Shown here piece after piece: positions 35,257-60,096 of a DNA stretch of 64,000 nucleotides. Source of the stretch: Candidatus Nanopelagicales bacterium (GTDB lineage: Bacteria > Actinomycetota > Actinomycetes > S36-B12); the NCBI GenBank assembly GCA_044240195.1, contig JBIHZX010000001.1, positions 135,576-199,575 of the forward strand, given 5' to 3'. The notes under the pieces are model-generated. The model was not told where the DNA came from. It worked only from the letters and a program-made list of their open reading frames with translations, and searched no databases. Each line of letters opens with the position of its first letter. The first letter of the stretch is position 1. A program made the position numbers and the translations under genes.

Positions 35257-35298
35257 TGGGCTCCTTCAATGAATTCGGCACAACATCTACGGTTTCGG

Positions 35299-35370
<72 letters not shown>

Positions 35371-35547
35371 GAAACTGCGCCTAACCGTACTACTTGGGAG
35401 CGTTGTCGGGCTTTTGGCCGTGCGCCGACGAGAATCCTCGCCTATTCAGGGCGTGAATACAGGTCTTTCCCGGACTTTGGGTCTACCGTGGTGGATACGA
35501 GAACGATTCGCCACCTGTGTTTACAACACACCCGAAGGAGTTATTCC

Positions 35548-37053: not shown

Positions 37054-37070
37054 ACACAATCACCCAAGTC

Positions 37071-37113
37071 AACTGGGCGAAGCTCCTACGGGAGTTTCGC
37101 CCAGTTTTCTTTG
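37071..37113 (+). terminator. Intrinsic terminator after the Ig-like gene (16-bp stem, TACG tetraloop, T-tract)
   Basis: aactgggcgaagctcc-tacg-ggagtttcgcccagtt pairs fully (one G-U pair) and is followed by ttctttg. The right arm and loop also encode the last codons of the convergent pabC-like gene. Confidence 0.55.
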
Positions 37114-37901
37114 TCCAGCGCAACGCGAATCTCATAACCGGCCACAATCTCACGCAATGTTTCATCCGCTGAATTCAATTCTCTATCAACAAATAACTCA
37201 ATTGGTTGGATACCACGAGTGCTGGAAAGCAGTGCAGCAGCATTAGCGCTACCCAGTAAGACCTCATCGATTGATACTTCCCGCACCGAACATGACTCCA
37301 GTACCACTTGGCGAGTAATACCAGGCAGACAACCTGAACTTAAAGGTGGCGTAATTGCTTCACCGTCGACAACGATCACGATGTTGCTTGTTGCCGCCTC
37401 AGAAAGTTGACCAGCATTATCAAAGAAAAGGGTTTCGGAGAAATTCATTCCTCTTGCCCAACTAAGCGCGACCGCATTCTCAGCGTAGGAAGCAGACTTA
37501 GCGCCAGTGATCGTCGAATTCACATTTCGAGTCCATGGTGAGATATTTACGCTGACGCGTGCTGGCCATGGAGTGAACTCGACCAATGACAACAGTAATT
37601 GCGGTTTGGGCACCCCGCCATAAAGTGTGATTCGTAAACGACCAAGTGCGTCATGATGCGATCCGAGCAGTTGCCTAATGCCAGTTGTGATCCCATCAGA
37701 ATCCGGCGGAACAATTCCTAGGATCTCACATGAATTTTTTAGTCGTGCAAGGTGCAAATCAAGAAATTGTGGCACCTCCTCTTTGACCAAGATCGTTTCA
37801 AATACACCCTGGCCCGTTAAAACTTCATGGGTTGCCTCAAGGGATGAATGCTCTTCCCAGTTTCCACTTCGGAAAACAATGGTTGTCATGATGGATTCCA
37901 A
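37086..37901 (-). CDS. pabC: Aminodeoxychorismate lyase-like class IV aminotransferase
   Basis: 271 aa with the class IV fold pattern (TSNIVIVVDGEAITPPLSSGCLPGITRQ). There is a 16-nt overlap with the end of pabB. Confidence 0.7.
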   Translation of the reverse strand: MESIMTTIVFRSGNWEEHSSLEATHEVLTGQGVFETILVKEEVPQFLDLHLARLKNSCEILGIVPPDSDGITTGIRQLLGSHHDALGRLRITLYGGVPKPQLLLSLVEFTPWPARVSVNISPWTRNVNSTITGAKSASYAENAVALSWARGMNFSETLFFDNAGQLSEAATSNIVIVVDGEAITPPLSSGCLPGITRQVVLESCSVREVSIDEVLLGSANAAALLSSTRGIQPIELFVDRELNSADETLREIVAGYEIRVALDKENWAKLP

Positions 37902-38932
37902 TTTTGCTCAGCAATACTGGAAAGATGTCGCGCCTTCAATTGCGTTTCCTCCCACTCAGTTTGTGGATTCGAACCCCACGTGATTCCCGCTCCCGTTCCA
38001 AACTTAAGCAACCCAGAATCAACCCAGAAAGTTCTAATGGCGACGGCGAGGCGTGCGGTTTTTTTATCTGCATCGATCCACCCAAACGCCCCGCAATAGG
38101 GGCCGCGATCCTCAGGTTCAAGTGAATCAATAATGTCAAGGGCAGCGATTTTTGGTGCCCCGGCAATTGAACCGGGCGGAAACGTTGCCTCAATAATTTT
38201 TGACCATTCGAAGTGCTGTGATACTTCTCCCTGTACCGTTGAAACAAGATGTACCAATCCCGGGTGCTGTTGGACTTCGAGTAGGTCAACAGCCTTAACG
38301 CTTCCAACATCACAGCACCGCGAAAGATCGTTGCGAACTAAATCGACGATCATGATGTTCTCCGCGCGATCCTTGTCCAACAACCCGCTGGCGCTTACAG
38401 CGGTTCCCTTGATGGGCTTTGACACCAACCGTGCACCCTCCCTAGAGAGGTAAAGTTCAGGGCTCGCGCAAGCAATGTGAACTCCCACCTCGGCGATGCG
38501 TAGTGCGCCCGCAAAAGGCGCATAATTCCCGCCGGCGAGTAGTGCATCGAGTGCCATAATGTCTGAGTGTGGATCACACACATTGCTTCTGATCCGACAA
38601 ATATTGACTTGATATACGTTTCCTCGTGAAATCGCGCTTCGAGTGGTTTCAACGGCCTTCTCATACAATTCTTGATCCATTGACGTGGTCCACGTTGAAC
38701 TATCAACACCTAACCAAGAACCAATCGTTGCTTCCCGAGGCTCACTCTCCCACGATGCAAAGCGGGCGAAGACTGGTTCTCCCGAAAAGGGAATCATTAC
38801 TGCCCAACGACCGCCACCTTGGATTGACTCGATGTCGTGGCTGAGTTCAGCCAGGTCATAGGCGTATTCGTCCCCAAATCGAGCCATTGGTATCGCGGTT
38901 GCGCCCAAATTCGGTGCACCTGGCTCGTTCAT
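37886..38932 (-). CDS. pabB: Aminodeoxychorismate synthase component I (chorismate-binding enzyme)
   Basis: It has the chorismate-binding C-terminal motifs GAPKIAALDIIDSLEPEDRGPYCGAFGWI and GAGITWGSNPQTEWEE. The start is set at the ATG at 38932, because the track ORF runs into tRNA-Gly. Confidence 0.8.
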   Translation of the reverse strand: MNEPGAPNLGATAIPMARFGDEYAYDLAELSHDIESIQGGGRWAVMIPFSGEPVFARFASWESEPREATIGSWLGVDSSTWTTSMDQELYEKAVETTRSAISRGNVYQVNICRIRSNVCDPHSDIMALDALLAGGNYAPFAGALRIAEVGVHIACASPELYLSREGARLVSKPIKGTAVSASGLLDKDRAENIMIVDLVRNDLSRCCDVGSVKAVDLLEVQQHPGLVHLVSTVQGEVSQHFEWSKIIEATFPPGSIAGAPKIAALDIIDSLEPEDRGPYCGAFGWIDADKKTARLAVAIRTFWVDSGLLKFGTGAGITWGSNPQTEWEETQLKARHLSSIAEQNWNPS

Positions 38933-39034
38933 GACGATAGCCTGCCCGGGTCCTCTAGAGCCCTCCGCTTTGGGCCTGTCATTCGTAATCAGATAGTGTT
39001 TGATCTCGCTTGTTGGGCACATGCCCGTGAGTGT

Positions 39035-39107
39035 GCGGACGTAGCGCAGCTGGTAGCGCATCACCTTGCCAAGGTGAGGGTCGCGGGTTCGAATCCCGTC
39101 GTCCGCT
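39035..39107 (+). tRNA. tRNA-Gly (anticodon GCC)
   Basis: 73-nt cloverleaf: GCGGACG acceptor, anticodon arm TCACC-TTGCCAA-GGTGA, T arm GCGGG-TTCGAAT-CCCGT. Confidence 0.9.
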
Positions 39108-39138
39108 CGAAGGGTTAGCGAGTATCACAAACCCGTCT

Positions 39139-39209
39139 GGTGGAGTGGCCGAGAGGCGAGGCAACGGCCTGCAAAGCCGTGTACACGGGTTCAAATCCCG
39201 TCTCCACCT
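39139..39209 (+). tRNA. tRNA-Cys (anticodon GCA)
   Basis: 71-nt cloverleaf: GGTGGAG acceptor, anticodon arm ACGGC-CTGCAAA-GCCGT, T arm ACGGG-TTCAAAT-CCCGT. Confidence 0.9.
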
Positions 39210-39247
39210 CTCACAAGCAAGACCACAACTGAATTCACCACCGCAAC

Positions 39248-39320
39248 GGGCGATTGGCGCAGGGGTTAGCGCGCTTCCTTGACATGGAAGAGGTCACAGG
39301 TTCGATTCCTGTATCGCCCA
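39248..39320 (+). tRNA. tRNA-Val (anticodon GAC)
   Basis: 73-nt cloverleaf: GGGCGAT acceptor, anticodon arm CTTCC-TTGACAT-GGAAG, T arm ACAGG-TTCGATT-CCTGT. Confidence 0.9.
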
Positions 39321-39325
39321 CTTAC
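39301..39325 (+). repeat. attL-like direct repeat (T-loop to 3' end of tRNA-Val(GAC) plus 5 nt)
   Basis: ttcgattcctgtatcgcccacttac matches 49929-49953 at 23 of 25 positions in direct orientation. Confidence 0.65.
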
Positions 39326-39690
39326 AGCCAGCCTTGAGGCACCGCTGGGGCCTAAAATCCTCCCATAGTCGTGTGCGTAATAATTGCGCTTGATTAAACC
39401 CCGGCTATTCGCAATCCAAAAGCTTTCAATAGGTTGTACCGAATACTGGAATTCTTCCAGATTAGAAATGAAACTTCTTAGGCTGGGTCTCACAGGGGAG
39501 TCGAGGCTATTGAACCGCGCTCTCTCGAGTTAAGCAACCAACGGCAGCACAAAATTGAACTAAACATCCTCGGGATCCATACAGACGCGTAAGGTCCTTG
39601 CATCGCTTCCATAGCAACCCATGGCAATTGAAGTAGAACAAACAAGGGACTAACCAAAGATTCAGTTTGGCTCATTGCGATATCAAAAAG

Positions 39691-39699
39691 TGACATAAT
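39691..39699 (+). promoter_or_regulatory. Candidate extended -10 element (tgaCATAAT) for a leaderless PucR-family regulator transcript
   Basis: A TGn + CATAAT element ends 6 nt before the GTG start at 39706. There is no Shine-Dalgarno sequence upstream of that start. Confidence 0.3.
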
Positions 39700-39705
39700 G
39701 CATTT

Positions 39706-40926
39706 GTGTCAAGTAGCGCATTCCATGACGAACCCGCGCTTGAAACTCATGAATTTCAACGTGATATTTTCGCCTTTGCTAACCACCTTGCATGGCACGT
39801 GGGCGGGCCGATAACTATTGAAGACCCATCTTGGCGAATAATTGCCTACTCAACGATCCATCAACGCATCGATGAGGCACGCCGCCGCACGATTCTCAGT
39901 CACGAAGTCCCTAAGGAATATCAAACTCTCCTCGATCAACATGGCGTTGCTAAGAGATTTCTGGCCGGAGACAATGCCGTGGAGATTCCGGCAGACTCTG
40001 ATCTGGCTTTCGCCCGACGAATAGCAGTCCCAGTAAGAATTCAAGGCGTTGTCGTCGGATCAATCTGGGTGGCGGAGTCCAACAACGATCTCAGTCCGGA
40101 CGCTACTGAGTTTCTCCAGGCGGCCTCCGGGCCTGCAAGTTACTTCTTCCGAGTTGAAAGCCACGCCCGTCAGAGAGAGTCGGAAGTATTTCTTAAGATG
40201 CTGGTCGACGGGACTGATGACAACATCTTCCTTGCAGAATATTTCGGTTTCAACTCAAAATCCAGCACACGCGTCCTCGCTGTTTGGCATGGCGGAGACT
40301 TGGGTCTTCGCGATCAATTAATCCACATCGCAGAGGTCGCTAGTCGGGAAGTCGGAATAGACACGCTATCGCTAACCCAAGGCAAAACCGCGTACTTCGT
40401 TGCCTACATGATGCACGCTAAAGATGACTTCGAGGAGTGCACGGAAAAAGTTGCATCTAGGCTGTCAAGTGTTGCAGAAAATCTAGTTGTGGGCCTTGGA
40501 GTCACCGTGTCCCAAGTGCAAGACATCCCGAGATCGAGACAAGAGGCGGATCTTGTCGTTACCTACCTCAGGCACCAATCCAAGGAACGTGTCGCGAGCA
40601 TGGACTCAGTTCGCACCGGAGTCACTCTGATGCTCGTTGCCGAAGTCTTGCGCAATCAATTGAAACCTATGCTTGGTCTGCAGGCATTTTCTAATTTGGG
40701 GGCAGCTGACCGCGAAGAAGTATTAAGTACCTTAGATCTGTTTTTTGAGCACATGGGTAACGCTGCCGAAGCGGCCCGGCGATTACACCTTCATCCAAAC
40801 TCATTTCGCTATCGACTGAACAAGATCTCGGACATTCTCAATGTCGATCTAAGCGACAGGAAGACACGACAGTTACTGGAACTACAAATACTTCTCGAAG
40901 CCTACTCAGACCTAAGTGATGGATGA
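39706..40926 (+). CDS. PucR-family transcriptional regulator
   Basis: 406 aa. The C-terminal PucR-type HTH reads AAEAARRLHLHPNSFRYRLNKISDIL, and the N-terminal part looks like a GAF-like sensor domain. Confidence 0.8.
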   Translation: MSSSAFHDEPALETHEFQRDIFAFANHLAWHVGGPITIEDPSWRIIAYSTIHQRIDEARRRTILSHEVPKEYQTLLDQHGVAKRFLAGDNAVEIPADSDLAFARRIAVPVRIQGVVVGSIWVAESNNDLSPDATEFLQAASGPASYFFRVESHARQRESEVFLKMLVDGTDDNIFLAEYFGFNSKSSTRVLAVWHGGDLGLRDQLIHIAEVASREVGIDTLSLTQGKTAYFVAYMMHAKDDFEECTEKVASRLSSVAENLVVGLGVTVSQVQDIPRSRQEADLVVTYLRHQSKERVASMDSVRTGVTLMLVAEVLRNQLKPMLGLQAFSNLGAADREEVLSTLDLFFEHMGNAAEAARRLHLHPNSFRYRLNKISDILNVDLSDRKTRQLLELQILLEAYSDLSDG

Positions 40927-42030
40927 CCTCGTAATAGTGAGCCGGGAACGCTCCCTTTCTCGGAGTACTTCCGGTATTACATCTACACCTATTCCAGGGC
41001 CCTGCGGGACGCGTAGATAGCCGTCCTCAAGGACAAAGGGGGCAGTTAGGTCCTCGTGAAAGTAACGAGCTGAAGCGGAAGTGTCATTAGGAAGAGAGAA
41101 CCCAGGTAAGCCTGCTAGGGCAATGTTTGCCGCCCGGCCTACCCCCGTCTCAAGCATCCCCCCGCACCATACTGGAATGCTTCGTTCCTGACAGACATCG
41201 TGTATGCGACGAGACTCGAGATACCCCCCAACGCGTCCTGGCTTAATGTTCACTATGGAACACGCCCCGCGTTCAATGGCGTTCAGGGCAACCTGAGCAG
41301 AAGTTATCGACTCGTCAAGGCAGATGGGAGTGGTTGTCATACTGGCCAACCTCATGTGTTGCTCGAGATCATCTTCAGGATACGGCTGCTCAATCATTAA
41401 AAGATTGAACTGCTCTAAAAGGAGAAGCCTGTTCGTTGTTGTTTCGTCGTAAGCCGTATTGGCATCGACACTGAGAAGTAGGTCGCTCCCGAATTCTTCG
41501 CGTACGGATCTCACCGGTTCCAGATCCCAATTAGGGCGAATCTTCAACTTAATTCGGCGGTAACCTTCTTCAATGTATCCACGAACCTCCTCCATAAGTA
41601 CCGGAACCGATTGGGCAATCCCCACTGAAACTCCGCAAGCCACTTTCTCCCTAGTAGCACCGAGGAAAGCTCCGAGAGAAATGCCTTCAGCCCGCAGGTA
41701 GGCATCGATCACAGCTGTCTCCACGGCAGCCTTTGCCATACGATGGCCAACAATTCCTGCAAACACTCTGCCCAACTCATGCACGTTGACTTCATCCAAC
41801 CGCAGGACCAAGGGGGCTAGGTAGCGTTCGATGACAATCTGGGCACTATCAACAAATTCATTCGTATAGAACGGATCTGCGAGCGCCACACACTCTGCCC
41901 ATCCAACACTGGTCGCTGTACGTACTCGCACAAGAAGGACCTGACGCACGGATTGCGTGCCAAATGAGGTCGTGAAAGCTCGCACCAATGGCATCTCGAC
42001 ACGGATCAATGAAATCTCATCGACTCTCAT
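40912..42030 (-). CDS. Enolase-superfamily N-succinylamino acid racemase / o-succinylbenzoate synthase family protein
   Basis: 372 aa. It resembles, from memory, Amycolatopsis N-acylamino acid racemase. Motifs are KxK RIKLKI, VDAN, IEQP, LDES, NIKPGRVGG and VWCGGMLETGVGRAAN. Confidence 0.9.
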   Translation of the reverse strand: MRVDEISLIRVEMPLVRAFTTSFGTQSVRQVLLVRVRTATSVGWAECVALADPFYTNEFVDSAQIVIERYLAPLVLRLDEVNVHELGRVFAGIVGHRMAKAAVETAVIDAYLRAEGISLGAFLGATREKVACGVSVGIAQSVPVLMEEVRGYIEEGYRRIKLKIRPNWDLEPVRSVREEFGSDLLLSVDANTAYDETTTNRLLLLEQFNLLMIEQPYPEDDLEQHMRLASMTTTPICLDESITSAQVALNAIERGACSIVNIKPGRVGGYLESRRIHDVCQERSIPVWCGGMLETGVGRAANIALAGLPGFSLPNDTSASARYFHEDLTAPFVLEDGYLRVPQGPGIGVDVIPEVLRERERSRLTITRSSIT

Positions 42031-42803
42031 GACCCAAGATCCCCATGATTAGTAAACACGTACACTCCTTCATCCCATAATGGTCGATGACCCTTAGCGA
42101 ATTCCACGGCAAACACATCGCGAATGCGAATCCTCAACTCAAGAGCCTCGGCCATGTTGGAGGCGCGAAGGCCTTCTATATCTGGAGGGATCTCTATTCT
42201 CGTATTCCTTCTATCTTTTTGGCCGTCAAGATCGTGGTCTATGCCTACCTCACCATTCAATTGCCAAGAGACTTCGAATCGATCCGTTCGATCCCCCGCG
42301 TTGATCTTGTCATCCATTCCTAGGTAAAAATCGGGGTGAAAAGCAACAACGCGAGCGCCTAACTTGATCAAGTTGAAATAGGCGTTGCGTGCTACCAGCG
42401 GGTCGTAGGTCCAGCGGATTTCAGTCACTCCATGTTCAAGGCAAAGTGCCCGCTGGGCGAGCTTCAAAGCGTATCCCACACCCGAAGAGGCGACCCCCGG
42501 TGAAACTGCCGTCATGTGGGAATGGAGGTGCAAACTACCCGCCCATCCCATGTACCCAAATGCAAATCCGACTGCTACCCCAGATTTTCGTGCAAGTAGT
42601 AAAGAATTTCCCGCATGTGCAATTCCTCTTAGTAAGTTGGAGGGACTAACTTGATCGGGTCCCCATACCTGATCTATTAGCATCTCAATCTCTCTTACAT
42701 CCGTCCCGTTTAGATTGTCTATAACAACCCCGGCACGAGCGCTGGCCGACAACGATTCTTCACGCGCAGCTGACACATGCGACTCATTCACAGCATGAAT
42801 CAT
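42027..42803 (-). CDS. GNAT-superfamily acyltransferase (COG3375-like)
   Basis: The start is set at the ATG at 42803 (MIHAVNES...), in an ATGA overlap with the deacylase stop. The acyl-CoA loop reads SSGVGYALKLAQR. The stop is in an ATGA overlap with the racemase start. Confidence 0.7.
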   Translation of the reverse strand: MIHAVNESHVSAAREESLSASARAGVVIDNLNGTDVREIEMLIDQVWGPDQVSPSNLLRGIAHAGNSLLLARKSGVAVGFAFGYMGWAGSLHLHSHMTAVSPGVASSGVGYALKLAQRALCLEHGVTEIRWTYDPLVARNAYFNLIKLGARVVAFHPDFYLGMDDKINAGDRTDRFEVSWQLNGEVGIDHDLDGQKDRRNTRIEIPPDIEGLRASNMAEALELRIRIRDVFAVEFAKGHRPLWDEGVYVFTNHGDLGS

Positions 42804-44389
42804 GTCGAATTCCTCACTAACCTGCGCCCCCTTCGGGCACCTGCATATGATCCGGCGACCACAACCTCGGACCCGTTCAGCATCACCCACGGAATACCCG
42901 TCGGGGTTTGCACAGGATTCTCAAATGTCGCCGTATCTTGCACCCCCCTCTGATCGAAAGCGACAAGGTCAGCTTTCATGCCAGCTGCGATCCTGCCGCG
43001 ATCGTGTAAACCAAAGGTGTCTGCGGGCAGAGAGGTCATTCGGCGAACTGCCTCTTCCATCGATAGAACTCCTAGCTCTCTTGCAAAACGTCCAAGAATC
43101 CGTGGGAAAGTCCCATAAAGTCTGGGGTGGGGTTTGCCCCCCGTACCAGGCGGCAAACCATCGGAACCAATCATTGTTTGCGGATGACTTAGGGCCGTCG
43201 TTACATCGGCTTCACTCATCTGGTGAACGGTCATCGTTGCCTGAAGCTCCTCGTCAATTAGCACCATGCATAGGGCCGCGCAGGGCTCAATGTCATATTC
43301 GATGGCAATCTCTGCCAAGGATTGCCCCTCAAATCTGTGGTCGCCAGTACTCGCGACCACAATGCCCTCCCACCCGGCGCCCATCACCATATTTTCCCAC
43401 TCAAGACTTATTACTGAGAGACTCTCTTCGAGTTCGCGTATTGCCTGAGCATCACGAAGTCGTCGCAAAACGCCTTCGTTTCCACCTTCCTGAAACCATG
43501 GAGGAAGGCAGGCCGTCAGCATTGTGCTTCCCGCGGTGTAGGGATAAATATCCTGGCGAACATCAACTCCACGTGCACGAGCACTATCGATCAAGTCCAA
43601 GGCCTCCTGCATCCTCCCCCAGTTATAGCGACCCGCGACCTTCAAATGGGAAATCTGTACCCGTCGCCCAGTGGCCTCTCCAACAGCGAGTGCTTCTTCG
43701 ATGCTTTGAAAAACTTGCGCCCCCTCTCCACGCATATGCGTCGCGTAGAGGATGCCCGAGGGAAGTCGCCCTACGAGTTTGGATATCTCCGTATGGCCCG
43801 CAAAAACACCGGGTGGATAAATCAGGCCTGTTGACATGCCGAAGATTCCAGCGTCAACCGACTCATCTAACGCCCTACCCATGGCAGATTCCTCACCCAG
43901 TGAGGGATTACGATTTTCCATGCCCATGGCCAGAATGCGAAGCGTGTGATGACCAACCATCGGCGCGTAGTTGGTCACGTAGCCGCGCATATCTAGTGCT
44001 TCAAAAAAATCGCCCATTGATGTCCAGCCCCAGTCCAAGGGCGGAAAGATTCGAGTGGCATATTCCCGCATAATATCCTCGTGCTGATATTGAAGAGGAG
44101 CCAAACTAAACCCACAGTTACCGACAACCTCTGTAGTGACACCTTGCATTATTTTAGAGACGTCGTCTTCATCCAAAAGTGGAGCGTTGTCAGCGTGTGA
44201 ATGAACGTCAATAAATCCCGGCGCAACAACGAGTCCGGTTAAATCAATTGGAGAGCAGTCTCCGGGTATTCCAGCACCATCGGGGATGACTGCCTCGATC
44301 AAATCCCCATCCAAGATCAAAGTGCCCTTGCGCGCTGAGTCTCCTGATCCGTCTGCAATTAAGGCATTAAGTATCGCTATTCGTGTCAT
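42800..44389 (-). CDS. N-acyl-D-amino-acid deacylase (D-aminoacylase) family amidohydrolase
   Basis: 529 aa. It has the metal motif GFIDVHSHAD and VVGNCGFS, whose Cys matches the Cys ligand of characterised D-aminoacylases. Confidence 0.85.
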   Translation of the reverse strand: MTRIAILNALIADGSGDSARKGTLILDGDLIEAVIPDGAGIPGDCSPIDLTGLVVAPGFIDVHSHADNAPLLDEDDVSKIMQGVTTEVVGNCGFSLAPLQYQHEDIMREYATRIFPPLDWGWTSMGDFFEALDMRGYVTNYAPMVGHHTLRILAMGMENRNPSLGEESAMGRALDESVDAGIFGMSTGLIYPPGVFAGHTEISKLVGRLPSGILYATHMRGEGAQVFQSIEEALAVGEATGRRVQISHLKVAGRYNWGRMQEALDLIDSARARGVDVRQDIYPYTAGSTMLTACLPPWFQEGGNEGVLRRLRDAQAIRELEESLSVISLEWENMVMGAGWEGIVVASTGDHRFEGQSLAEIAIEYDIEPCAALCMVLIDEELQATMTVHQMSEADVTTALSHPQTMIGSDGLPPGTGGKPHPRLYGTFPRILGRFARELGVLSMEEAVRRMTSLPADTFGLHDRGRIAAGMKADLVAFDQRGVQDTATFENPVQTPTGIPWVMLNGSEVVVAGSYAGARRGRRLVRNST

Positions 44390-44400
44390 ATTTGACTCTC

Positions 44401-45300
44401 TCAGGCTCGTGAAATGGGATTAACGACAGGGCAATCGCCCATGGATTCAGGCCACCAGGCGCGTAGAATCGCCCTACCTATTAATCCATTCGCAACATCG
44501 CCTTCCGATTCGGTAAGGAAAGTAAGGTCACTTCCTTCATGGTTCGCTACGCAGTAAGTGAATCCGCCCTGCCCGGGGAATCGAATAATCCCTGCATCGA
44601 CTCTGGTGCCCAAGAAGAATCCAGTCTTGTTGGCCACCATGATTTCCGGAATTTGACCGAGCTCTCTCCAATAAGGGGTGACGCGCATATACCTTGGAAA
44701 CTGGTTGAGATACTGCTGCTGTTCCAAGATTGACTCCATCTCTTCGCACAGCCTTGCATCGACAATAGACCGAAGAGCGATCATTTCCATCAAGGTGCGG
44801 AGGTCTCTTGGGCTCGCCACGCCAAGCCTTCGAATATCATCGCCGATTGCCTCGAAATCGATTCGGTTGTTGAGTCGAACTGTTGCTAGACCCAAGCCGT
44901 CCATTGCTGCATTGACAGTCGCAACGTCGCCCCCAAAGGCATCCAGCACCATGTTGGTCGCGGTGTTGTCGCTGAGCACCACCATTAGGGTTGCAACATC
45001 ACGAACAGTTGGCTCCAGGCCTGATTCAAAAACCTTGAGTATTCCCGATCCACCACGTTTATCAGAATCCTCAAGGGTCAATCGAGAATCCAGTGAGACC
45101 TTACCCAAAGCGGCTAATTCATAAAGTGCAACCAATATTGGGACCTTGATTACGCTTGCCATGGGAAAAACTAAATCAGAATCAATGTCTACCTCCTGCA
45201 TCCCGCTCAGACTCCGAGCAGAAACTGCCATGATTCCTGAGAACTCTCCAATAATTTCGTTAAGTTCGTTTTCCAGCTCACGGGTCATTGCGTACTCCAT
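44401..45300 (-). CDS. Class A beta-lactamase-fold serine hydrolase, no signal peptide
   Basis: 299 aa. It has SxxK (ASVIKV), SDN (LSDNTATN) and KTG (ANKTGF). The N-terminus MEYAMTRELENELNEIIGEF is acidic and not secretory. Confidence 0.8.
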   Translation of the reverse strand: MEYAMTRELENELNEIIGEFSGIMAVSARSLSGMQEVDIDSDLVFPMASVIKVPILVALYELAALGKVSLDSRLTLEDSDKRGGSGILKVFESGLEPTVRDVATLMVVLSDNTATNMVLDAFGGDVATVNAAMDGLGLATVRLNNRIDFEAIGDDIRRLGVASPRDLRTLMEMIALRSIVDARLCEEMESILEQQQYLNQFPRYMRVTPYWRELGQIPEIMVANKTGFFLGTRVDAGIIRFPGQGGFTYCVANHEGSDLTFLTESEGDVANGLIGRAILRAWWPESMGDCPVVNPISRA

Positions 45301-45340
45301 ATTCCAAGTGCATAAACAGTGAATGAATTTGGCTGGGCGT

Positions 45341-45381
45341 GCGGCTGACCCTGATAAAGCGAATCAATCAAGGTCAGCCGC
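45341..45381 (-). other. Intercistronic stem-loop (10-bp perfect stem) between the transporter and enzyme genes
   Basis: gcggctgacc...(21 nt)...ggtcagccgc. No U-tract follows on the transcribed strand. Confidence 0.45.
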
Positions 45382-45407
45382 AACAACTAATCTTTACGGC
45401 CTAATTG

Positions 45408-46613
45408 CTATAGCCCTTCGACGTTGCCTACAACTTGAAGGAAGCCTCCTTTAGAAAGCCATTCATTGTCAGGAACCAGCGCAGGAAGCAACTTGGGCTT
45501 AGTGCTTCCAACGTCGTAATAGTTACCAACGGTGTCCTTGCTCAACACCTGTTGCGGGAACGGGGTCACTTTGACAGTAGGAGTGACACCCAACGCACGG
45601 GCTTGAGCTGCTGCAATTGCATATTGCCCCCAGTAGGAGATGAAAATATCTCCTTCAGCGACCCAACGAGGATCATCGCGAAGTGCATTTAGTCCGCCTT
45701 CGTCACCGCCCAAGCCGCCCACAAGCGTATCGTCATCTCCACCACGGCCGGCATCTTCCATAGCTCGTAGAGCGCCCATGGTTGAGTCGTTATTGACCGT
45801 GTACAAAATGATGTTATTGCCTTCGGGAATACTTGGAATAATATTCTTCACAGCATCAAAACTTGGCTGCAACGTTGACTGTCCATCAAATTGGATCGCA
45901 TTGGCTCCAATCTTTGTAGTCTTTGGAGTAATGGTTGTTGGATCCACCTCTTCCATTCCTAGCATCGGTGCAATCGTCGTGTAAAAGTAGCGGACACAGT
46001 CATTGACCTGCTCGCCGGCCGCTGCGTTCTGACCTATGAGGATCGTTGTGTTGGATGCGTTCCATCCACGATCCTTCGCAATGGCACCAATGATATTCGC
46101 CGACTCTTCGCCAAGTTTCCGATTATCGATATTGAGGAAAGTGCATTCAGCGACGTCTAGATTCATGGCAACGCAAGGGATTCCGCTCTCTCCTAGCATT
46201 TTTCCGACACCCTTGGTCGCTGTCGAGACCGGGTAAATAACGATAGCTGCAGGATTGTCCGCGATCTGGAGTTGAACATTTTCCAGCATCTTTGCTGGAT
46301 CTCCCGCATTGTCGTACCACTTGACTTCCACACCCGTGGCATTGTCCGCAATTTGTTGGTCCAGATTCTTGTGAATTACCTGGAAAAGCGGCGCCGCCTC
46401 CGTATAGATCGACATACTCACGTTGAACGGGTCTGGCAATTGTGCTGTAGCAGCAGTCGGAGACTCCACTGGGGCACTCGACTCAGTGGTGACGTCGGCG
46501 CTGCTGGAAGCAGCGGAAGTGGTTTCCCCTCCTGAGTTTCCGCCACAGGCAGTCACTGTCAGAGCACTCACAGCGATTAGTACACCTAGTTCAATAATCC
46601 TATTTTTTTTCAT
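45408..46613 (-). CDS. ABC transporter substrate-binding lipoprotein (type I periplasmic binding protein, sugar/RbsB-like)
   Basis: 401 aa. A lipobox (LTVTAC) is followed by a Ser/Thr/Ala-rich linker and a PBP type I fold pattern. The RBS is GGTGAGGTGA. Confidence 0.85.
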   Translation of the reverse strand: MKKNRIIELGVLIAVSALTVTACGGNSGGETTSAASSSADVTTESSAPVESPTAATAQLPDPFNVSMSIYTEAAPLFQVIHKNLDQQIADNATGVEVKWYDNAGDPAKMLENVQLQIADNPAAIVIYPVSTATKGVGKMLGESGIPCVAMNLDVAECTFLNIDNRKLGEESANIIGAIAKDRGWNASNTTILIGQNAAAGEQVNDCVRYFYTTIAPMLGMEEVDPTTITPKTTKIGANAIQFDGQSTLQPSFDAVKNIIPSIPEGNNIILYTVNNDSTMGALRAMEDAGRGGDDDTLVGGLGGDEGGLNALRDDPRWVAEGDIFISYWGQYAIAAAQARALGVTPTVKVTPFPQQVLSKDTVGNYYDVGSTKPKLLPALVPDNEWLSKGGFLQVVGNVEGL

Positions 46614-46676
46614 TCACCTCACCTGACCTTCCTTGAATAATCTGTCGGATCCGTTGTTAGAACCGACCTTAATTGG

Positions 46677-47669
46677 CTACACCTTCTTCAGTACTTTCTT
46701 TGTTCTTCGAAACTGACTCAATAACACCGCAATAAGTAAGACAACGCCCGTGGCCATTGTTTGGTAGAAAGAGGGAATGCTCAGCATCGCCATCCCATTG
46801 GACAGAACCCCAAGGAGTAGAACACCCACCAGTGTGCCCGAGACGACACCGACGCCACCTGTCAATGCAGCACCCCCAAGAATGACTGCAGCGATTGATT
46901 GAAGAGCTGAATTGATTCCTGCGGTACCGGAACCTGTAAGCAACTGGCTCGCGAGGATCGCTCCAGCCAGTCCAGCTAACGCTGCTGAAGTCAGATATAC
47001 GGCAAGCGTCACCATATTGACCGGGATGCCAGCGAGTCGCGCCGCTTCGCGATTTCCACCCACCGCATAAAGAGAACGCCCGAAGATCGTATATCTCAAC
47101 ACGAGTGAGGTAACTAGGCAAAGGCCCAAAAACACCCAAATCTGATTGTTCAAACCAAAAATTGATCGACTCGTCAGAATTCCGTCATCGGCATTAACGA
47201 ATGGGATCTGAATTCCACCCGATAAAGTTAGGGCAAGCCCGCCAGATAAATACCAAGTGCCGAGCGTGGCAATGAGCGGGCTTACCTTGGTGTAACCAAC
47301 GAGAACACCATTAATCAATCCGAAAATCCCCGTCGATGCCATTGCCACCAACAACGCCAATGGCATCGTCCACCCAGAATTTAACAGCATTGCAAAAATA
47401 ACTCCGCCCAGCGGTACGGTCCCACTCACTGAAAGGTCAAAGCCCCCAGAGACAATGACTAGCAGCTGGCCCAGAGAAATAACTCCGATAACCGCCGAGT
47501 TTGCAAGTACATTCGTGAGGTTATTAGGCGATATCGATGAACCACCAGTCTGCCACCAAAAAACGCAGATGAGAAGCAAAAGGAATACCAGCAGCATGAG
47601 CGCGCGTCCATTAGTCTCACTCACGACAAACTTATTCTTGGGAATTTCAACTTTAGCGGACTCAATCAT
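46677..47669 (-). CDS. ABC transporter permease (RbsC/CUT2 type)
   Basis: The start is set at the ATG at 47669, 14 nt after the ATPase stop. It is polytopic with the RbsC-like pattern. The track ORF (to 47768) would overlap the ATPase by 86 nt. Confidence 0.85.
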   Translation of the reverse strand: MIESAKVEIPKNKFVVSETNGRALMLLVFLLLLICVFWWQTGGSSISPNNLTNVLANSAVIGVISLGQLLVIVSGGFDLSVSGTVPLGGVIFAMLLNSGWTMPLALLVAMASTGIFGLINGVLVGYTKVSPLIATLGTWYLSGGLALTLSGGIQIPFVNADDGILTSRSIFGLNNQIWVFLGLCLVTSLVLRYTIFGRSLYAVGGNREAARLAGIPVNMVTLAVYLTSAALAGLAGAILASQLLTGSGTAGINSALQSIAAVILGGAALTGGVGVVSGTLVGVLLLGVLSNGMAMLSIPSFYQTMATGVVLLIAVLLSQFRRTKKVLKKV

Positions 47670-47682
47670 CTGCGTGTGCCTT

Positions 47683-49200
47683 TCATAGTAATCCCCCAGC
47701 GGCTTGTAGGGCTTCGACCTGCGAGTCTTCGGTCGGGTTGCAAATTTCATGCACGATTCTTCCCTCACGGAAGATTAGGAGTCGGTCACAAATTGTTACT
47801 GCTTCCTCAATATCTGAGGTCACTACAAGTTGACCGGTACCAGCATCTGCCATTTGGCGCAGGATGTTGTGAAGTTCCACCCGGGCGCCAACGTCAACAC
47901 CACGCGTCGGTTCATGCAGAACGAGCGCAGCAGGTGCCAAGGCAATGCGACTGCCCATCAGCACCTTTTGCTGATTTCCACCAGAGAGTTCAGACACCGC
48001 TTGATTCAGACTCCTGGAACGGAGCAGAGTGACCTTAGCGAGAGTGCGCGCCAGCTCATCCTCTTTCTTCAGGCGCAAAAAACCGAGCCTTGCTAGAGAC
48101 CGCATGACCAATAATGAATATGAGGATTTCACACTCATGATAGAGATGAGCCCTTGAATCTTTCGATCAGCAGGCATGTAGCCGATGGACGCCTTTAATG
48201 CGTCACGAGGTGATTTAGGGACGGGAACTGATCTACCCGCAACCGTAAGGCCGCCACGAACACTCGAGTGCAAACCCCCAAGTGTTTCAGCGAGTGTCCC
48301 AGCCCCGGAGCCCGAAAGTCCATAAACTCCAACAATCTCATTTTTGCCAACAGTAAGAGATATGCCTCGAAGTTGTGGATAATCATCGCGCACCAAAGAC
48401 AACACTTCCAAAATCGGCACGTCTGTAGCTACAGTTGCTGAACTCACTTGCCGTACAGTTTCCTCCCGCCCGAGAATGTGGCTAATTACTTCTGACGGTC
48501 TCGTATCCGAAACGCTTCCCGAAAAAACTAGAGAGCCATTGCGAAGAACCTGCACATGGGAGCAGGCCCGGAATACCTCATCGAGTCGATGAGAGATATA
48601 GACGATTGATGTGCCACTAGCGGCTACACTCTGCATGAGGTCGAGGAGACGCTCACTTTGATCACTATTAAGTGCAGCCGTTGGTTCATCGAGTATGATC
48701 AATTTAGAGCGTCGAGACATCGCTTTCACTATCTCTACAGCCTGCTGGTCGGCAAAACTCAGCGAATACATTTCCGCCCTCATAGGCAAGTCAAATCCCA
48801 GACGCGCAGACTCTTCCGCAGAAGACCTGAGTATTCGTTTGTTCGTAGTCATGAACCCTGAACGCGGCCATCGCCCCAAGCAAATATTCTCAGCGACTGT
48901 CATGCGAGGAACGTAGATCAATTCTTGTGGAATGAGCGAAAACCCATTTATCAATGCCTCTCGAGGAGAGTCAAACCGCAGGCGATCCTCGCCAATGAAA
49001 ATCTCTCCACTATCAGGTTCAACTGCGCCGGCCAAGATCTTGGCTAGAGTTGATTTTCCTGCACCGTTTTCGCCTAGTAAAGCCGTAATCTGGCCGGGCA
49101 ATAAGGAGAAACTCACTTCGTTAAGAACGCTCTGTCCACCATATGACTTGCTCAACTGCCGAAGTTCGATAGGGGGTCTCATGAGCTGGTTATCGTTCAC
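47683..49200 (-). CDS. ABC transporter ATP-binding protein, duplicated ATPase domains (RbsA/CUT2 type)
   Basis: 505 aa. It has a first Walker A GENGAGKST, LSGGNQQK-type signatures and a degenerate second P-loop GLSGSGAGT. The GTG start lies behind GGGGGAGG. Confidence 0.9.
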   Translation of the reverse strand: MNDNQLMRPPIELRQLSKSYGGQSVLNEVSFSLLPGQITALLGENGAGKSTLAKILAGAVEPDSGEIFIGEDRLRFDSPREALINGFSLIPQELIYVPRMTVAENICLGRWPRSGFMTTNKRILRSSAEESARLGFDLPMRAEMYSLSFADQQAVEIVKAMSRRSKLIILDEPTAALNSDQSERLLDLMQSVAASGTSIVYISHRLDEVFRACSHVQVLRNGSLVFSGSVSDTRPSEVISHILGREETVRQVSSATVATDVPILEVLSLVRDDYPQLRGISLTVGKNEIVGVYGLSGSGAGTLAETLGGLHSSVRGGLTVAGRSVPVPKSPRDALKASIGYMPADRKIQGLISIMSVKSSYSLLVMRSLARLGFLRLKKEDELARTLAKVTLLRSRSLNQAVSELSGGNQQKVLMGSRIALAPAALVLHEPTRGVDVGARVELHNILRQMADAGTGQLVVTSDIEEAVTICDRLLIFREGRIVHEICNPTEDSQVEALQAAGGLL

Positions 49201-49928
49201 GGCACCTCCCCCTTGAAGCTATTGATTGGAAATTAGCACTGAGACGACCAGTTGTCTATGTTGCAAACTCCAAATTATCCGATACAAAAATTGCACAAGC
49301 CCCAGACAGAGGACGTCTGCTGACTCAGCTTTAACTTCAAGTCAATTCAATTATGATCACGATTCGATAGTTGACTCCTCTTCAACCGCCCCTACGTTTG
49401 CTAATCCACAGAGTGAAGCAGTGTTCCGATCACCCCCAACTTGCGCAGCCACTTGTCGACACGGAGCATCGGCACCTCGAACCCGTGACCATCGATAGCG
49501 TTTGAGCACTTGAGTTCTGGGTATTGAATGTTCTTGCTCAATGAAACCAGCTGAGTCAACCAGATGCGAGTTGCCGCTGCCGTGGCCCAATCACGCCTAA
49601 AGTTCCCCCAAGTTCATTCGCCTCAAAAAGTTGAGACAGCTTCATTCAGCAAGTGGGCGGGGCTACCTCCTATCTGGCTGGGCTGATTCAGGTAAGGGTC
49701 ACAGGGAACTCCAGCATCGAGCAGCGTTACAAGAAGGAAAGTGCAATTTTTGGGTTATCATCGCGCCGCAACGGTATCGCTGTGGCGACCGCCGGAGTGC
49801 ATTTCGGGGCGCTTGTACTGTAGGGGCGTTCCAACCTTTCCAGCACTGGACAGATCGGCTCATTTTCCGTCATTAAACGCTCACAACAAGGGGAAAAACT
49901 TCCAACATAAATAATAACGGAATACATT
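49201..49928. other. 728-nt stretch with no convincing ORF at the distal end of the island (operon promoter region and possible gene debris)
   Basis: All six frames are broken by stops. Only 60-90-aa ORFs with atypical composition are present. Confidence 0.4.
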
Positions 49929-49953
49929 TTCGAATCCTGTATCGCTCACTTAC
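49929..49953 (+). repeat. attR-like displaced tRNA-Val 3' fragment
   Basis: ttcgaatcctgtatcgctcacttac. It has no D arm or anticodon arm upstream, so it is not a tRNA gene. It matches 39301-39325 at 23 of 25 positions. Confidence 0.65.
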
Positions 49954-50071
49954 CTGAGTTTCCCTGAAACGGATGATGCCTCGGAGTACATTGAATCCCT
50001 TTAGTCTTCTCCTGTGGCAAGCCCCACAGTCATGCGGCACCGATCTGGAAGCCGCGGTTCACCGGTGACTG

Positions 50072-50326
50072 TCATTGCTCGCGCTCTGGTAAAGCATGTG
50101 TAGAGGGCTTTGCTTCAGGCATCATCCATTCCTGAGTCTTGGTCAAATAGGGGTCATTCACATAAGCGTCATAGAGTGAATGCGCTTCTTCATACAGTTG
50201 AGAATCATAGGGGCTGGCTGCGATCCGTTCGAGGAGTTCATCGGCATGCTTCGCCTGAGCCACCGCGCCATTTCTTTGAACTTCACGCAGCTGGTTCACG
50301 GGATCCACAGCCAAAGTCTTCCACAC
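50072..50326 (-). CDS. Hypothetical small protein (weak call)
   Basis: 84-aa ORF with ordinary composition. It has no well-spaced RBS and no motif I recognise. Confidence 0.3.
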   Translation of the reverse strand: MWKTLAVDPVNQLREVQRNGAVAQAKHADELLERIAASPYDSQLYEEAHSLYDAYVNDPYLTKTQEWMMPEAKPSTHALPEREQ

Positions 50327-50390
50327 CTTTCAAACATAGTGATCTACCTCCGATCGGTCGTGTCTGGCCTGATCTGCTTTCCAGTACTCT

Positions 50391-51488
50391 GTGATCGTGG
50401 TAACCAATGATTCATCTCTGCCACTTGCCGGGGTAGTGGTTGTTGACCTCTCATCCAATATTGCCGCACCCTTCGGCTCAGCGATTCTGGCTGATTTAGG
50501 TGCCGAGGTTGTCCATATTGAACCCCCAGCTGGTGACGACAGTCGTCGCATGTCGCCAACAAAAGGTAGCGGCTCAGCTTTTTTCTACGTGGTGAATCGA
50601 AATAAGTCATTTGTCACATTGGACCTGCGACTGGACACGGATCAGGAAACCCTTTTCGAGATGCTCACCGCAGCTGATGTCTTAGTGAGTAACCTACGAC
50701 CATACAAGCTTGCAGAACTGGGATTAGACGCTCCGACCCTTGCTGTAACTTTGCCCGGCTTGATCACCGCCTATCTCAATGCCTACGGACCGCATCCAGA
50801 TGAATTAGATCAGGCCGGTTACGACGGTGTAATCCAGGCAAGGACCGGCATTATCGGAGTAACCGGAGCCACTGAACCGGCGCGTGCGGGAGTTTCGATC
50901 CTGGACATGGGTTCGGGAATGTGGCTTGCGATTGGGGTGCTCTCGGCCCTCTATCAAAAGTCGATAACGGGACTTGGATCAAGCGTTTCCACGTCACTGT
51001 TTGAGACGGGAGTGAACTGGAGCGCGTATCACCTGCTCGCCCATCAATTCACGGGAGAGGCGTCAACTCGCGCCGGAACCGGCCACCCTGCTTTTGCTCC
51101 CTATGGACTGTTCCCAACAAGCGATGGCCAAGTCATGATCGGCGTTGGTGGTGACGCCGTTTTCGCACGGCTTGTCAACAGTATTGGTCTGCCGGAACTA
51201 CTGACCGACTCACGCTTTGCTACCAATAGCGCCCGGGTGGCACACCAAACCGAATTGAAGGAAACGCTTTCACAGGCTTTTGCGAACTTTTCCAGCACCG
51301 AACTCATCACAGTTCTACGAAACGCAGACGTGCCTTCAGATCTTCTTGCCTTGCCAGAAGACCTACTCGATGACCCAGCCGCGCACGAACAACTAACGAA
51401 AATTGTTGTGAGCGGACAAAACTCAAGGATGCCTTCACTCCCACTAAGAATTAATGGCGAATACCCGCCAATTAGGTTCCCTTCCTAA
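50391..51488 (+). CDS. Family III CoA-transferase (CaiB/BaiF type)
   Basis: 365 aa. The N-terminal pattern is PLAGVVVVDLSSNIAAPFGSAILADLGAEVVHIEPPAGDDSR. Confidence 0.85.
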   Translation: MIVVTNDSSLPLAGVVVVDLSSNIAAPFGSAILADLGAEVVHIEPPAGDDSRRMSPTKGSGSAFFYVVNRNKSFVTLDLRLDTDQETLFEMLTAADVLVSNLRPYKLAELGLDAPTLAVTLPGLITAYLNAYGPHPDELDQAGYDGVIQARTGIIGVTGATEPARAGVSILDMGSGMWLAIGVLSALYQKSITGLGSSVSTSLFETGVNWSAYHLLAHQFTGEASTRAGTGHPAFAPYGLFPTSDGQVMIGVGGDAVFARLVNSIGLPELLTDSRFATNSARVAHQTELKETLSQAFANFSSTELITVLRNADVPSDLLALPEDLLDDPAAHEQLTKIVVSGQNSRMPSLPLRINGEYPPIRFPS

Positions 51489-51723
51489 AGGCAGCCGCCA
51501 CGATTGCAACCAGAATGGTCGCAATCAGGATTTGGGTTCCGAAGGTGAGCCAGAAACCCCATTGCGCCGCATTGCCGATCAGCGCCCCTCCCGCTCCACC
51601 GACGACACCGATTAAAACCGTGACGAAACACCCAATGGGCTGCATGCTCGGTACCAAGATTCGAGCAATAAGGCCGATAACTATTCCAACAAAGAGGCCG
51701 CTGATGAGGCCGGAAATTTCCAT
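51472..51723 (-). CDS. GlsB/YeaQ/YmgE family (transglycosylase-associated) small membrane protein
   Basis: The start is set at the ATG at 51723 (MEISGLISGLFVGIVIGLIARILVP...). It has three Gly-rich TM helices. Confidence 0.75.
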   Translation of the reverse strand: MEISGLISGLFVGIVIGLIARILVPSMQPIGCFVTVLIGVVGGAGGALIGNAAQWGFWLTFGTQILIATILVAIVAAAFRKGT

Positions 51724-51727
51724 AGCC

Positions 51728-60048: not shown

Positions 60049-60096
60049 ATCAGTGATGGCAGGGCAGATCAGTGACGGCCAGGGCAGATCAGTGAG
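60049..60096. repeat. About 20-nt tandem repeat (2 full copies plus a partial) across the xerD stop codon and the xerD-parA spacer
   Basis: The 16-mer cagggcagatcagtga occurs at 60060-60075 and 60080-60095. A partial copy, atcagtga, lies at 60049-60056. The second full copy contains the xerD stop (60089-60091). Confidence 0.75.

Follow-up and report, generated by a model that had tools for sequence, protein, structure and literature searches.

Prochlorococcus genomes reportedly contain islands flanked by tRNA genes, tycheposons among them, and tycheposons are defined by recombinase families of their own beside the tRNA. The locus described here resembles these elements in lying next to a tRNA gene, in its partial tRNA repeat and in its nutrient-acquisition cargo; mobility genes are often decayed in the Prochlorococcus elements as well. 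Unlike tycheposons, it has no recombinase, and no excised form was seen.

Two further kinds of island offer a close comparison. In Islander (Hudson, Lau and Williams 2015, PMC4383910), an island is required to contain a tyrosine integrase gene, and islands that do so are deemed putatively active. The additive flexible genomic islands of streamlined freshwater bacteria (for example fGI-2; PMC10872708) have repeats in varying numbers, hold different content in the same chromosomal slot in related species, and differ in content between strains of one species. Nanopelagicales strains, moreover, diversify their carbohydrate transporters (PMC10872708).

We analysed a 64-kb stretch of DNA, referred to below as the window, in which the 3′ end of tRNA-Val(GAC) recurs downstream and encloses 10.6 kb with eight genes (Table 1). 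As in Islander islands, the two end points are marked by an intact tRNA and, displaced downstream in the same direction, a 3′ fragment cognate to it; the size is close to the typical ~10 kb, and none of the cargo relates to mobility. The interval is also absent from relatives, and synteny with the closest of them breaks at the tRNA end and ~170 bp past the distal copy. No tyrosine integrase lies inside it. Because Islander requires one, the island would be filtered out there, and beside the Islander islands it would stand as a degraded, inactive example. It shares with additive flexible genomic islands a slot that holds different content in related species, but it has one distal copy, and its content is the same in four of four informative contigs. 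We consider it likely that the repeat is a fossil attL/attR pair around an immobilised island.

Table 1 Features of the tRNA-Val(GAC) locus, in window coordinates.
Feature	Position	Strand	Evidence or remark
Intact tRNA-Val(GAC)	39248-39321 (ARAGORN) / 39320 (Rfam)	+	putative integration target, attB side; 3′ end would form attL
Proximal repeat copy, putative attL core	39301-39325	+	T-loop to 4-5 nt past tRNA end
Non-coding, tRNA to regulator gene, 380 bp	39326-39705		no integrase; its expected place by analogy with phage contigs
PucR/CdaR-family transcription regulator	39706-40926	+	Pfam HTH_30 1.4e-17, GGDEF_2
Enolase-superfamily enzyme, MR/MLE type	40912-42030	-	Pfam MR_MLE_C 1.3e-50
258-aa protein, no assigned function	42027-42803	-	faint GNAT acetyltransferase signal; kept in cassette elsewhere
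N-acyl-D-amino-acid deacylase (D-aminoacylase) family amidohydrolase	42800-44389	-	Pfam Amidohydro_3; homolog source names
Class A beta-lactamase-like serine hydrolase	44401-45300	-	Pfam Beta-lactamase2 8.4e-52
Periplasmic/lipoprotein substrate-binding protein, ABC importer	45408-46613	-	Pfam Peripla_BP_4
ABC importer permease, monosaccharide type	46677-47768	-	Pfam and NCBIfam
ABC importer ATPase, two ATP-binding domains, AraG/RbsA-like	47683-49200	-	first gene of minus-strand operon
Non-coding, operon upstream to distal repeat, 728 bp	49201-49928		no recognisable gene relic
Distal repeat copy, putative attR	49929-49953	+	displaced tRNA-Val 3′ fragment, without tRNA body
Older accessory layer outside repeat	50072-51488		orf84 and CoA-transferase
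orf84	50072-50326	-	common to L006
Family III CoA-transferase	50391-51488	+	in L006, 83-aa C-terminal remnant only
87-aa membrane protein	51472-51735	-	first right-side gene conserved across the order

The two copies of the repeat, TTCGATTCCTGTATCGCCCACTTAC (39301-39325) and TTCGAATCCTGTATCGCTCACTTAC (49929-49953), lie on the same strand and match at 23 of 25 positions. The first-pass annotation had reported this direct recurrence of the tRNA 3′ end, and both a pattern search and shuffled controls confirmed it. At up to three mismatches the two copies were the only matches in the 64-kb window, and none of 100 dinucleotide shuffles gave a second match. For the window's other four tRNAs, the 3′ 25-mer did not recur even when five mismatches were allowed. 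A repeat finder placed the same block at the top of the region's direct repeats, as 30 nt at 87% identity (39296-39325 and 49924-49953), and the block is sharply bounded: outside it, local alignment scores upstream and downstream were at or below the shuffled level. The target tRNA (39248-39321) scores 69 bits against the Rfam tRNA model, is the last gene in a Gly-Cys-Val cluster, and shares 100% identity with tRNA-Val in the relative L006. The original description of the repeat as the last 20 nt of the tRNA plus 5 nt downstream holds for the tRNA end predicted by Rfam; with the ARAGORN end, the division becomes 21 + 4.

The mismatches in the distal copy fall where they had been placed, one in the T-loop (position 59) and one in the acceptor stem (position 71). 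Neither ARAGORN nor Rfam called a tRNA or tRNA-like body there, and the side and orientation are correct for the displaced 3′ fragment that had been proposed. Rfam at E≤1 over 33-56 kb returned five tRNAs and nothing else. A 17-nt inverted match between the T-arm of tRNA-Gly and 49477-49493 was judged to be chance because no T-arm is formed.

Could the distal copy instead be all that survives of another tRNA-Val gene? Such a gene might have come from tandem or segmental duplication, or with the cassette, and then decayed or been cut short by a deletion. tRNA genes do duplicate, and the two differences, read from the sequence, would fit a functional variant: position 59 is a variable T-loop position, and the change at position 71 turns G2-C71 into G2-U71, both tolerable in a tRNA. 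However, the 92% identity over 25 nt falls abruptly to random in the 5′ direction instead of decaying gradually, and it also takes in the 4-5 nt after the tRNA (CTTAC), at which even the nearest relative reads CAAGG. A second tRNA-Val(GAC) near the locus is present in none of the relatives. We regard such an origin as improbable.

Environmental phages indicate that this tRNA serves as an attachment site. In the phage contig L109, a tyrosine integrase (PF00589, 1.5e-30) is followed 83 bp on by a 43-nt 3′ half of tRNA-Val(GAC), with no full tRNA, and the same layout is present in L168, L143, L170, L111, and L134. Phages with an integrase beside such a fragment imply that this tRNA is indeed used as an attachment site in bacteria of this kind. 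The temperate actinophages L109, L168, L143, and L170 share with the island the target tRNA and the use of its 3′ half; in them the tyrosine integrase lies directly beside the fragment, and the identity blocks span 43-46 nt from the anticodon loop, whereas the block in the window spans 25-30 nt. As a whole, the phage attP blocks are 32-46 nt long and begin at either the anticodon loop or the variable loop. For the island, we considered and rejected a longer repeat, now decayed, that would have extended to the anticodon loop as it does in the phages, the upstream similarity being at shuffle level. The tRNA-Val phages also carry an HNH endonuclease, a tail-fibre chaperone domain and a Cro/C1 repressor, whereas the window has no phage genes. 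One could imagine an ‘att-only’ cassette that never had an integrase of its own and that was inserted, and is still excisable, in trans by an L109-type actinophage integrase, but we consider this a long shot.

The interval itself contains no integrase, excisionase or transfer gene, and no relic of one, according to Pfam scans of the eight genes and of the six-frame translated ends and to tblastn. With the L109 integrase as query, the sole tblastn match was XerD, 10 kb away; the window has no tyrosine recombinase other than this housekeeping XerD (60089-60886). Stop-free pieces of at least 25 aa from 39322-39705 and 49201-50071 yielded nothing in Pfam at E≤10, and the non-coding ends matched none of the fetched loci and nothing in the phage collection except the tRNA itself. 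These results bear out the first-pass annotation, which had found no mobility gene and had described the element as immobilised, and they extend to both non-coding ends (39321-39705 and 49201-49928; six-frame Pfam and tblastn). Phage structural or lysis, replication, FtsK-like transfer, int and xis genes are likewise missing from the eight genes, which encode a regulator, enzymes and transporter parts. By gene content, the interval is neither a prophage nor an integrative conjugative element, including the actinomycete type (AICE).

Instead, the interval is one functional module, comprising a regulator, enzymes and a sugar-type ABC importer. The MR/MLE enzyme scores 297.6 bits against NCBIfam TIGR01928, above the cutoff, placing it in the o-succinylbenzoate synthase / N-succinylamino-acid racemase group, and the beta-lactamase-like hydrolase scores below the NCBIfam beta-lactamase cutoffs. 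The module probably imports an N-acylated D-amino-acid-like compound and deacylates or racemises it. The permease gene was called as 330 aa in metagenome contigs, ending at ~47669. Through a larger protein database, we found a six-gene cassette elsewhere at 55-78% amino acid identity, in three other genomic contexts with a GC content of 0.50-0.73. The nearest of these copies are ~65% identical, none of the three contexts has a tRNA-Val beside the cassette, and in L107 a homolog of the PucR/CdaR regulator adjoins it. A scan of metagenome contigs for the D-aminoacylase gave only matches of at most 55% identity, without the cassette.

The closest genome is the metagenome-assembled genome L006, at ~80% DNA identity. 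Its homology to the window covers 33374-39321, ends exactly at the last base of the tRNA and resumes inside orf84 at ~50120; the flanking genes are 81-98% identical. All eight interval genes are absent at the locus in L006 and in seven more distant relatives (L010, L012, L014, L015, L016, L017, and L023), as expected of the accessory region that had been proposed. The right flank, by comparison, is not the conserved housekeeping segment that the first-pass annotation had described. Both orf84 and the CoA-transferase are absent from L014, L017, and other distant relatives, and the CoA-transferase is truncated in L006; the two are therefore an older accessory layer.

Seven of these eight relatives have different genes in the slot that extends from tRNA-Val to the membrane-protein/AFG1 genes. 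In the remaining one, L017, the slot is empty, with ~150 bp separating tRNA-Val and the conserved membrane-protein gene. The slot downstream of the tRNA cluster changes content throughout the actinobacterial order. The insert in L006 is 3.35 kb long and lacks the repeat, and no integrase was found in the slot in any relative examined; gene turnover here therefore need not always leave att scars, and perhaps also proceeds without needing them.

It is very unlikely that the region is ancestral, with a chance or convergent repeat and with the operon lost from the relatives. Such a history would agree with the host-like GC at codon positions and with the lack of an empty site within the species, but it would have to accommodate a repeat that no shuffled sequence reproduced, an operon missing at the locus in eight relatives spanning the order (none of the repeat-less relatives has the same genes at the same place), and a divergence of the nearest other cassettes, in other contexts, far beyond that of the flanks from L006.

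Within the species, all four informative contigs (hfMNX4FJ, L001, L002, and L178, from four metagenomes, a small sample) are occupied, and L001 is 99.9% identical to the window; the distal copy was found in L001, L002, and L086. The island appears to be fixed in the species. Exact look-ups of the orf84 and CoA-transferase proteins each returned a single 2.2-kb contig identical to the window, and that of an 83-aa membrane protein returned ten contigs, every informative one of them occupied. The first-pass annotation had suggested looking for an empty site, which would read GGTTCGATTCCTGTATCGCCCACTTAC followed directly by CTGAGTTTCCCTGAAACGG, and comparison with relatives did not produce one: L006 is not an empty site because a different insert is present, and the species offers none because four of four informative contigs carry the island. 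We found no empty attB or circular junction. An exact-pattern scan with TTCGAWTCCTGTATCGCYCACTTAC gave no match in metagenome contigs and none in viral contigs, in collections without this species, as is evident because L001 and L002 do carry attR.

Composition sets the interval apart only mildly. Its GC content is 1.7 points lower (p=0.012), and of all 5-kb windows in the 64 kb, the six with the most atypical tetranucleotide usage fall in 39-50 kb, with z no higher than 2.6, but its GC3 is indistinguishable from that of the rest of the window. A host-like GC3 would suit a composite origin, in which the 10.6 kb did not at any time move as a single unit: the repeat would be the scar of an earlier, deleted element, such as an L109-like prophage, and the operon would have arrived separately by hot-spot recombination. 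The same history would account for a cargo that is a single ordinary operon plus regulator, chromosomal elsewhere, for the non-coding ends of 380 and 728 bp, which could not be assigned, and for a slot whose metabolic genes differ from relative to relative and are accompanied by neither integrases nor repeats, the L006 insert being one example. We nevertheless find it doubtful. The interval holds one coherent module and no remnant of another element, the tetranucleotide deviation covers the whole interval, and swapping the interior of a prophage while keeping both att cores would take at least two extra events.

If the repeat is a fossil attL/attR pair, as we think likely, a tyrosine-integrase element whose attP copied the T-loop-to-3′-end segment of tRNA-Val(GAC) would have recombined with the chromosomal gene. 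Recombination would have regenerated an intact tRNA proximally and displaced the 3′ fragment 10.6 kb downstream, leaving the island atop the older accessory layer of orf84 and CoA-transferase. The integrase, along with whatever transfer or phage genes the element carried, would later have been lost without recognisable trace, and with them the island's mobility. We infer that an integrase made this particular repeat and that the cargo travelled with the element that left the scar. The repeat, its orientation, the accessory interval and the missing integrase fit the attL/attR footprint as first described; the right flank proved to be accessory, no empty site was found, and the composition is only mildly atypical.

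Some features of the locus run counter to a fossil att pair. The right synteny break lies ~170 bp off the repeat, GC3 is host-like, the phage blocks are longer, no integrase or excisionase relic is present, and no empty attB or circle was seen.

A scar of this kind is ordinary for bacterial genomes, and it leaves the knowledge of tRNA-gene integration unchanged. The locus provides a base-precise case of a streamlined uncultured freshwater actinobacterium, of a Nanopelagicales-like lineage of metagenome-assembled genomes, gaining an operon for nutrient uptake at a tRNA hot spot, and it links that hot spot to environmental phages with a matching attachment site. It may be of use in annotating flexible genomic islands in such genomes and in assigning phages to hosts by attP/tRNA matching. 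If the ‘att-only’ history were true, phage integrases would drive the exchange of metabolic cassettes at tRNA hot spots in freshwater Actinobacteria with streamlined genomes.

The island beside tRNA-Val(GAC) is probably bounded by a fossil attL/attR pair: an element would have integrated by a tyrosine integrase into the segment from the T-loop to the 3' end of this tRNA gene, its mobility genes would subsequently have been lost, and its cargo would have become fixed. The proximal repeat copy spans the T-loop to 4–5 nt beyond the tRNA end, within a Gly-Cys-Val tRNA cluster called by ARAGORN, with which Rfam agrees. The distal copy lies on the same strand, and neither tool detected a tRNA-like feature there. 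At ≤3 mismatches, the 25-mer matched the 64-kb window just twice, at the two copies, and a second match arose in none of 100 dinucleotide-preserving shuffles; we consider a chance match, or an ancestral region, effectively excluded. A repeat finder ranked the pair first among the direct repeats of the region and lengthened the block to 30 nt (87% identity). For the four remaining tRNAs of the window, no second copy of the 3' 25-mer turned up even with ≤5 mismatches allowed. Pattern matching, shuffling, ARAGORN and Rfam thus confirm what the first-pass annotation had described, a direct 25-nt repeat of the tRNA 3' end with no distal tRNA body.

The distal copy could instead be a truncated duplicate of the tRNA. 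Similarity beyond the repeat block on either side did not exceed that of shuffled sequence, so the block is sharply bounded and not a decayed whole gene. The full CCA end is encoded by tRNA-Val(GAC) neither in the window (ACTTAC) nor in the closest genome, L006 (ACAAGG), and more distant relatives (L010, L014, L016) encode ACC or ACCA. The bases just past the discriminator base are thus specific to the lineage, and the CTTAC common to both copies is for that reason informative. Given the abrupt boundary, and an identity that runs on beyond the tRNA end into bases at which L006 differs, a truncated duplicate fits poorly and seems very improbable. The intact tRNA-Val gene and its L006 counterpart are 100% identical. 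Both mismatches in the distal copy fall at positions that tRNAs tolerate (variable T-loop position 59, and G2-C71 to G2-U71); being just two, they may reflect either attP/attB differences or later decay.

The interval comprises one regulator and a seven-gene minus-strand operon, set off from the repeat copies by non-coding DNA. The cargo (39706-49200) is an unusual pairing that points to no obvious substrate: a monosaccharide-type (CUT2-like) ABC importer stands alongside a D-aminoacylase, a racemase-type enolase enzyme, a beta-lactamase-like hydrolase and a faintly GNAT-like protein. A near-perfect inverted repeat just past the substrate-binding-protein gene, before the beta-lactamase-like gene, is possibly an intra-operon stabiliser or attenuator hairpin of the kind often found after binding-protein genes.

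Features of the tRNA-Val(GAC) island and its surroundings
Feature	Position	Strand	Remark
Gly(GCC)-Cys(GCA)-Val(GAC) tRNA cluster	39035-39321	+	
Proximal repeat copy	39301-39325	+	TTCGATTCCTGTATCGCCCACTTAC
Non-coding end	39326-39705		380 bp
PucR/CdaR-family regulator	39706-40926	+	
MR/MLE enolase-superfamily enzyme	40912-42030	-	o-succinylbenzoate synthase / N-succinylamino-acid racemase model, above cutoff
258-aa unknown protein	42027-42803	-	faint GNAT signal
N-acyl-D-amino-acid deacylase family amidohydrolase	42800-44389	-	
Class A beta-lactamase-like hydrolase	44401-45300	-	
Inverted repeat	45340-45382		16 bp, 11-nt loop
Substrate-binding protein	45408-46613	-	
Permease	46677-47768	-	monosaccharide-type ABC importer
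Two-domain ATPase	47683-49200	-	monosaccharide-type ABC importer
Non-coding end	49201-49928		728 bp
Distal repeat copy	49929-49953	+	TTCGAATCCTGTATCGCTCACTTAC
orf84	50072-50326	-	
Family III CoA-transferase	50391-51488	+	365 aa, full
XerD-type tyrosine recombinase	60089-60886	-	

The best genome match to the right-flank AFG1-ATPase was L006, a 'Candidatus Nanopelagicales' MAG (87% amino-acid identity); the remaining matches, from actinobacterial MAGs and Streptomyces-like genomes, reached at most 59%. DNA homology to L006 (~80% identity) covers 33374-39321, ending at the final tRNA-Val base, and restarts at 51235. At the protein level, L006 has an orf84 homolog, and of the CoA-transferase it keeps an 83-aa C-terminal remnant, so homology restarts inside orf84 near 50120, ~170 bp past the distal copy. 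In L006 (11257-11717) this remnant abuts the orf84 homolog, pointing to a ~0.85-kb deletion that inactivated the CoA-transferase. L006 is not the empty site to be looked for in close relatives: homology does stop at the tRNA end, but between orf84 and the tRNA L006 has 3.35 kb of other sequence, with genes for a secreted 501-aa protein and an Hsp20 (L006 11997-14595), and the tRNA end is not repeated there. At its C-terminus, the secreted protein is 35% identical to the C-terminus of an Ig-like protein of 521 aa whose gene (35488-37053) lies to the left of the tRNA cluster in the window. The longest PabB-like ORF overlaps tRNA-Gly (38933-39064, minus strand); comparison with L006 puts its start at ATG 38932, giving a 348-aa product that is absent from the exact-protein index.

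In more distant relatives the gene order tRNA-Pro, AFG1, 87-aa membrane protein, tRNA-Val-Cys-Gly, PabB, PabC is retained, and the slot between the membrane-protein gene and tRNA-Val varies. It is empty (~150 bp) in L017 and holds a quinone oxidoreductase in L014, a GMC oxidoreductase in L010, an SDR and two unknown proteins in L015, an alcohol dehydrogenase and an alpha/beta hydrolase in L016, sulfite reductase, CysG and others in L012, and ABC transporter genes and others in L023; none of these seven slots contains an integrase. The eight interval genes are therefore accessory, as first proposed, and lineage-specific. The right flank had been taken for conserved housekeeping genes, which does not hold for 49954-51488, where orf84 and the CoA-transferase make up an older layer of accessory genes; the slot as a whole has long been a hot spot. 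Its recombinational turnover, seen in every relative, speaks for the main rival explanation, that the repeats are the scar of an earlier element and the operon arrived separately through such turnover; we regard this as possible but unlikely.

Integration at tRNA-Val(GAC), the reading we prefer, has parallels among phages. An IMG/VR scan with the tRNA 3' end recovered contig L109 (IMGVR_UViG_3300032236_000643), which encodes a 371-aa tyrosine integrase (PF00589, 1.5e-30). On the other strand, 83 bp past this gene, lies a 43-nt segment from anticodon loop to 3' end, identical to relatives' tRNA-Val(GAC), with no full tRNA there; integrase and fragment together lie at 12018-13258. Neighbouring genes encode a Cro/C1 repressor, an HNH endonuclease and a protein with a tail-fibre-chaperone domain. 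Contig L134 has the same layout, three others (L168, L143, L170) carry integrase homologs (E 1e-47 to 1e-69) within ~100 bp of 44–46-nt fragments, and the fragment in L111 measures 32 nt. In bacteria of this kind tRNA-Val(GAC) does serve as an attachment site, and the phage fragments (32–46 nt, without a full tRNA) are probably attP sites. Going by this layout, an integrated element would have its integrase right after the regenerated tRNA, and in the window exactly this position is occupied by 380 bp of DNA that could not be assigned.

The interval contains no integrase, excisionase, replication, transfer or phage genes, and none of the stop-free six-frame pieces of both non-coding ends had a Pfam match at E≤10. 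A tblastn search of the window with a phage integrase matched only its sole tyrosine recombinase, the XerD-type gene, whose ParA-like, ScpA and ScpB neighbours mark it as housekeeping; it is unrelated to the island. The reported lack of integrase, excisionase and transfer genes between the copies therefore stands. A prophage, an ICE/AICE and a tycheposon were rejected on gene content.

The closest non-self D-aminoacylase homologs are ~65% identical. The three contigs that encode them (L106-L108; GC 0.50-0.73) share with the island a six-gene cassette of ATPase, permease, binding protein, beta-lactamase-like hydrolase, D-aminoacylase and 258-aa protein, with a PucR homolog beside it in L107. 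Their contexts differ from one another and none adjoins tRNA-Val, so the cargo is a coherent, patchily distributed functional module. Since the flanking core genes are 81–98% identical to L006 and the cassette has no close relative, its distribution is consistent with horizontal acquisition. The expected compositional signal appeared in part. GC3 is equal (0.511 for island genes vs 0.518 for the rest of the window, p=0.30), but overall GC is slightly lower (0.513 vs 0.530, p=0.012) and the island is where tetranucleotide distance from the window mean is greatest, the six top 5-kb windows of the 64 kb all falling within 39-50 kb (z 1.6-2.6). The deviation is genuine yet mild, as would suit either a donor with a composition like that of the host or DNA that has resided in this genome for a long time.

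Exact-protein look-ups recovered same-species contigs from several lake metagenomes. All four that were long enough (hfMNX4FJ, L001, L002, L178) contain the island, L001 being 99.9% identical to the window. These four yielded neither an empty site nor a circular form, so the island looks fixed. The att pattern had no match in metagenome and viral collections, which do not contain the host species.

The anatomy matches that of Islander-type tDNA islands (PMC4383910), except that the integrase required there is missing. The island also resembles the additive flexible islands of freshwater Methylophilaceae, which lack an integrase and can be recognised by repeated copies of the final 20 nt of tRNA-Lys (PMC10872708); unlike those, it shows no strain-to-strain variation in the four contigs. 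Its value lies mainly in annotating flexible islands and phage-host links in uncultured freshwater Actinobacteria, where the putative attP fragments could be used to assign phages to Nanopelagicales-like hosts.
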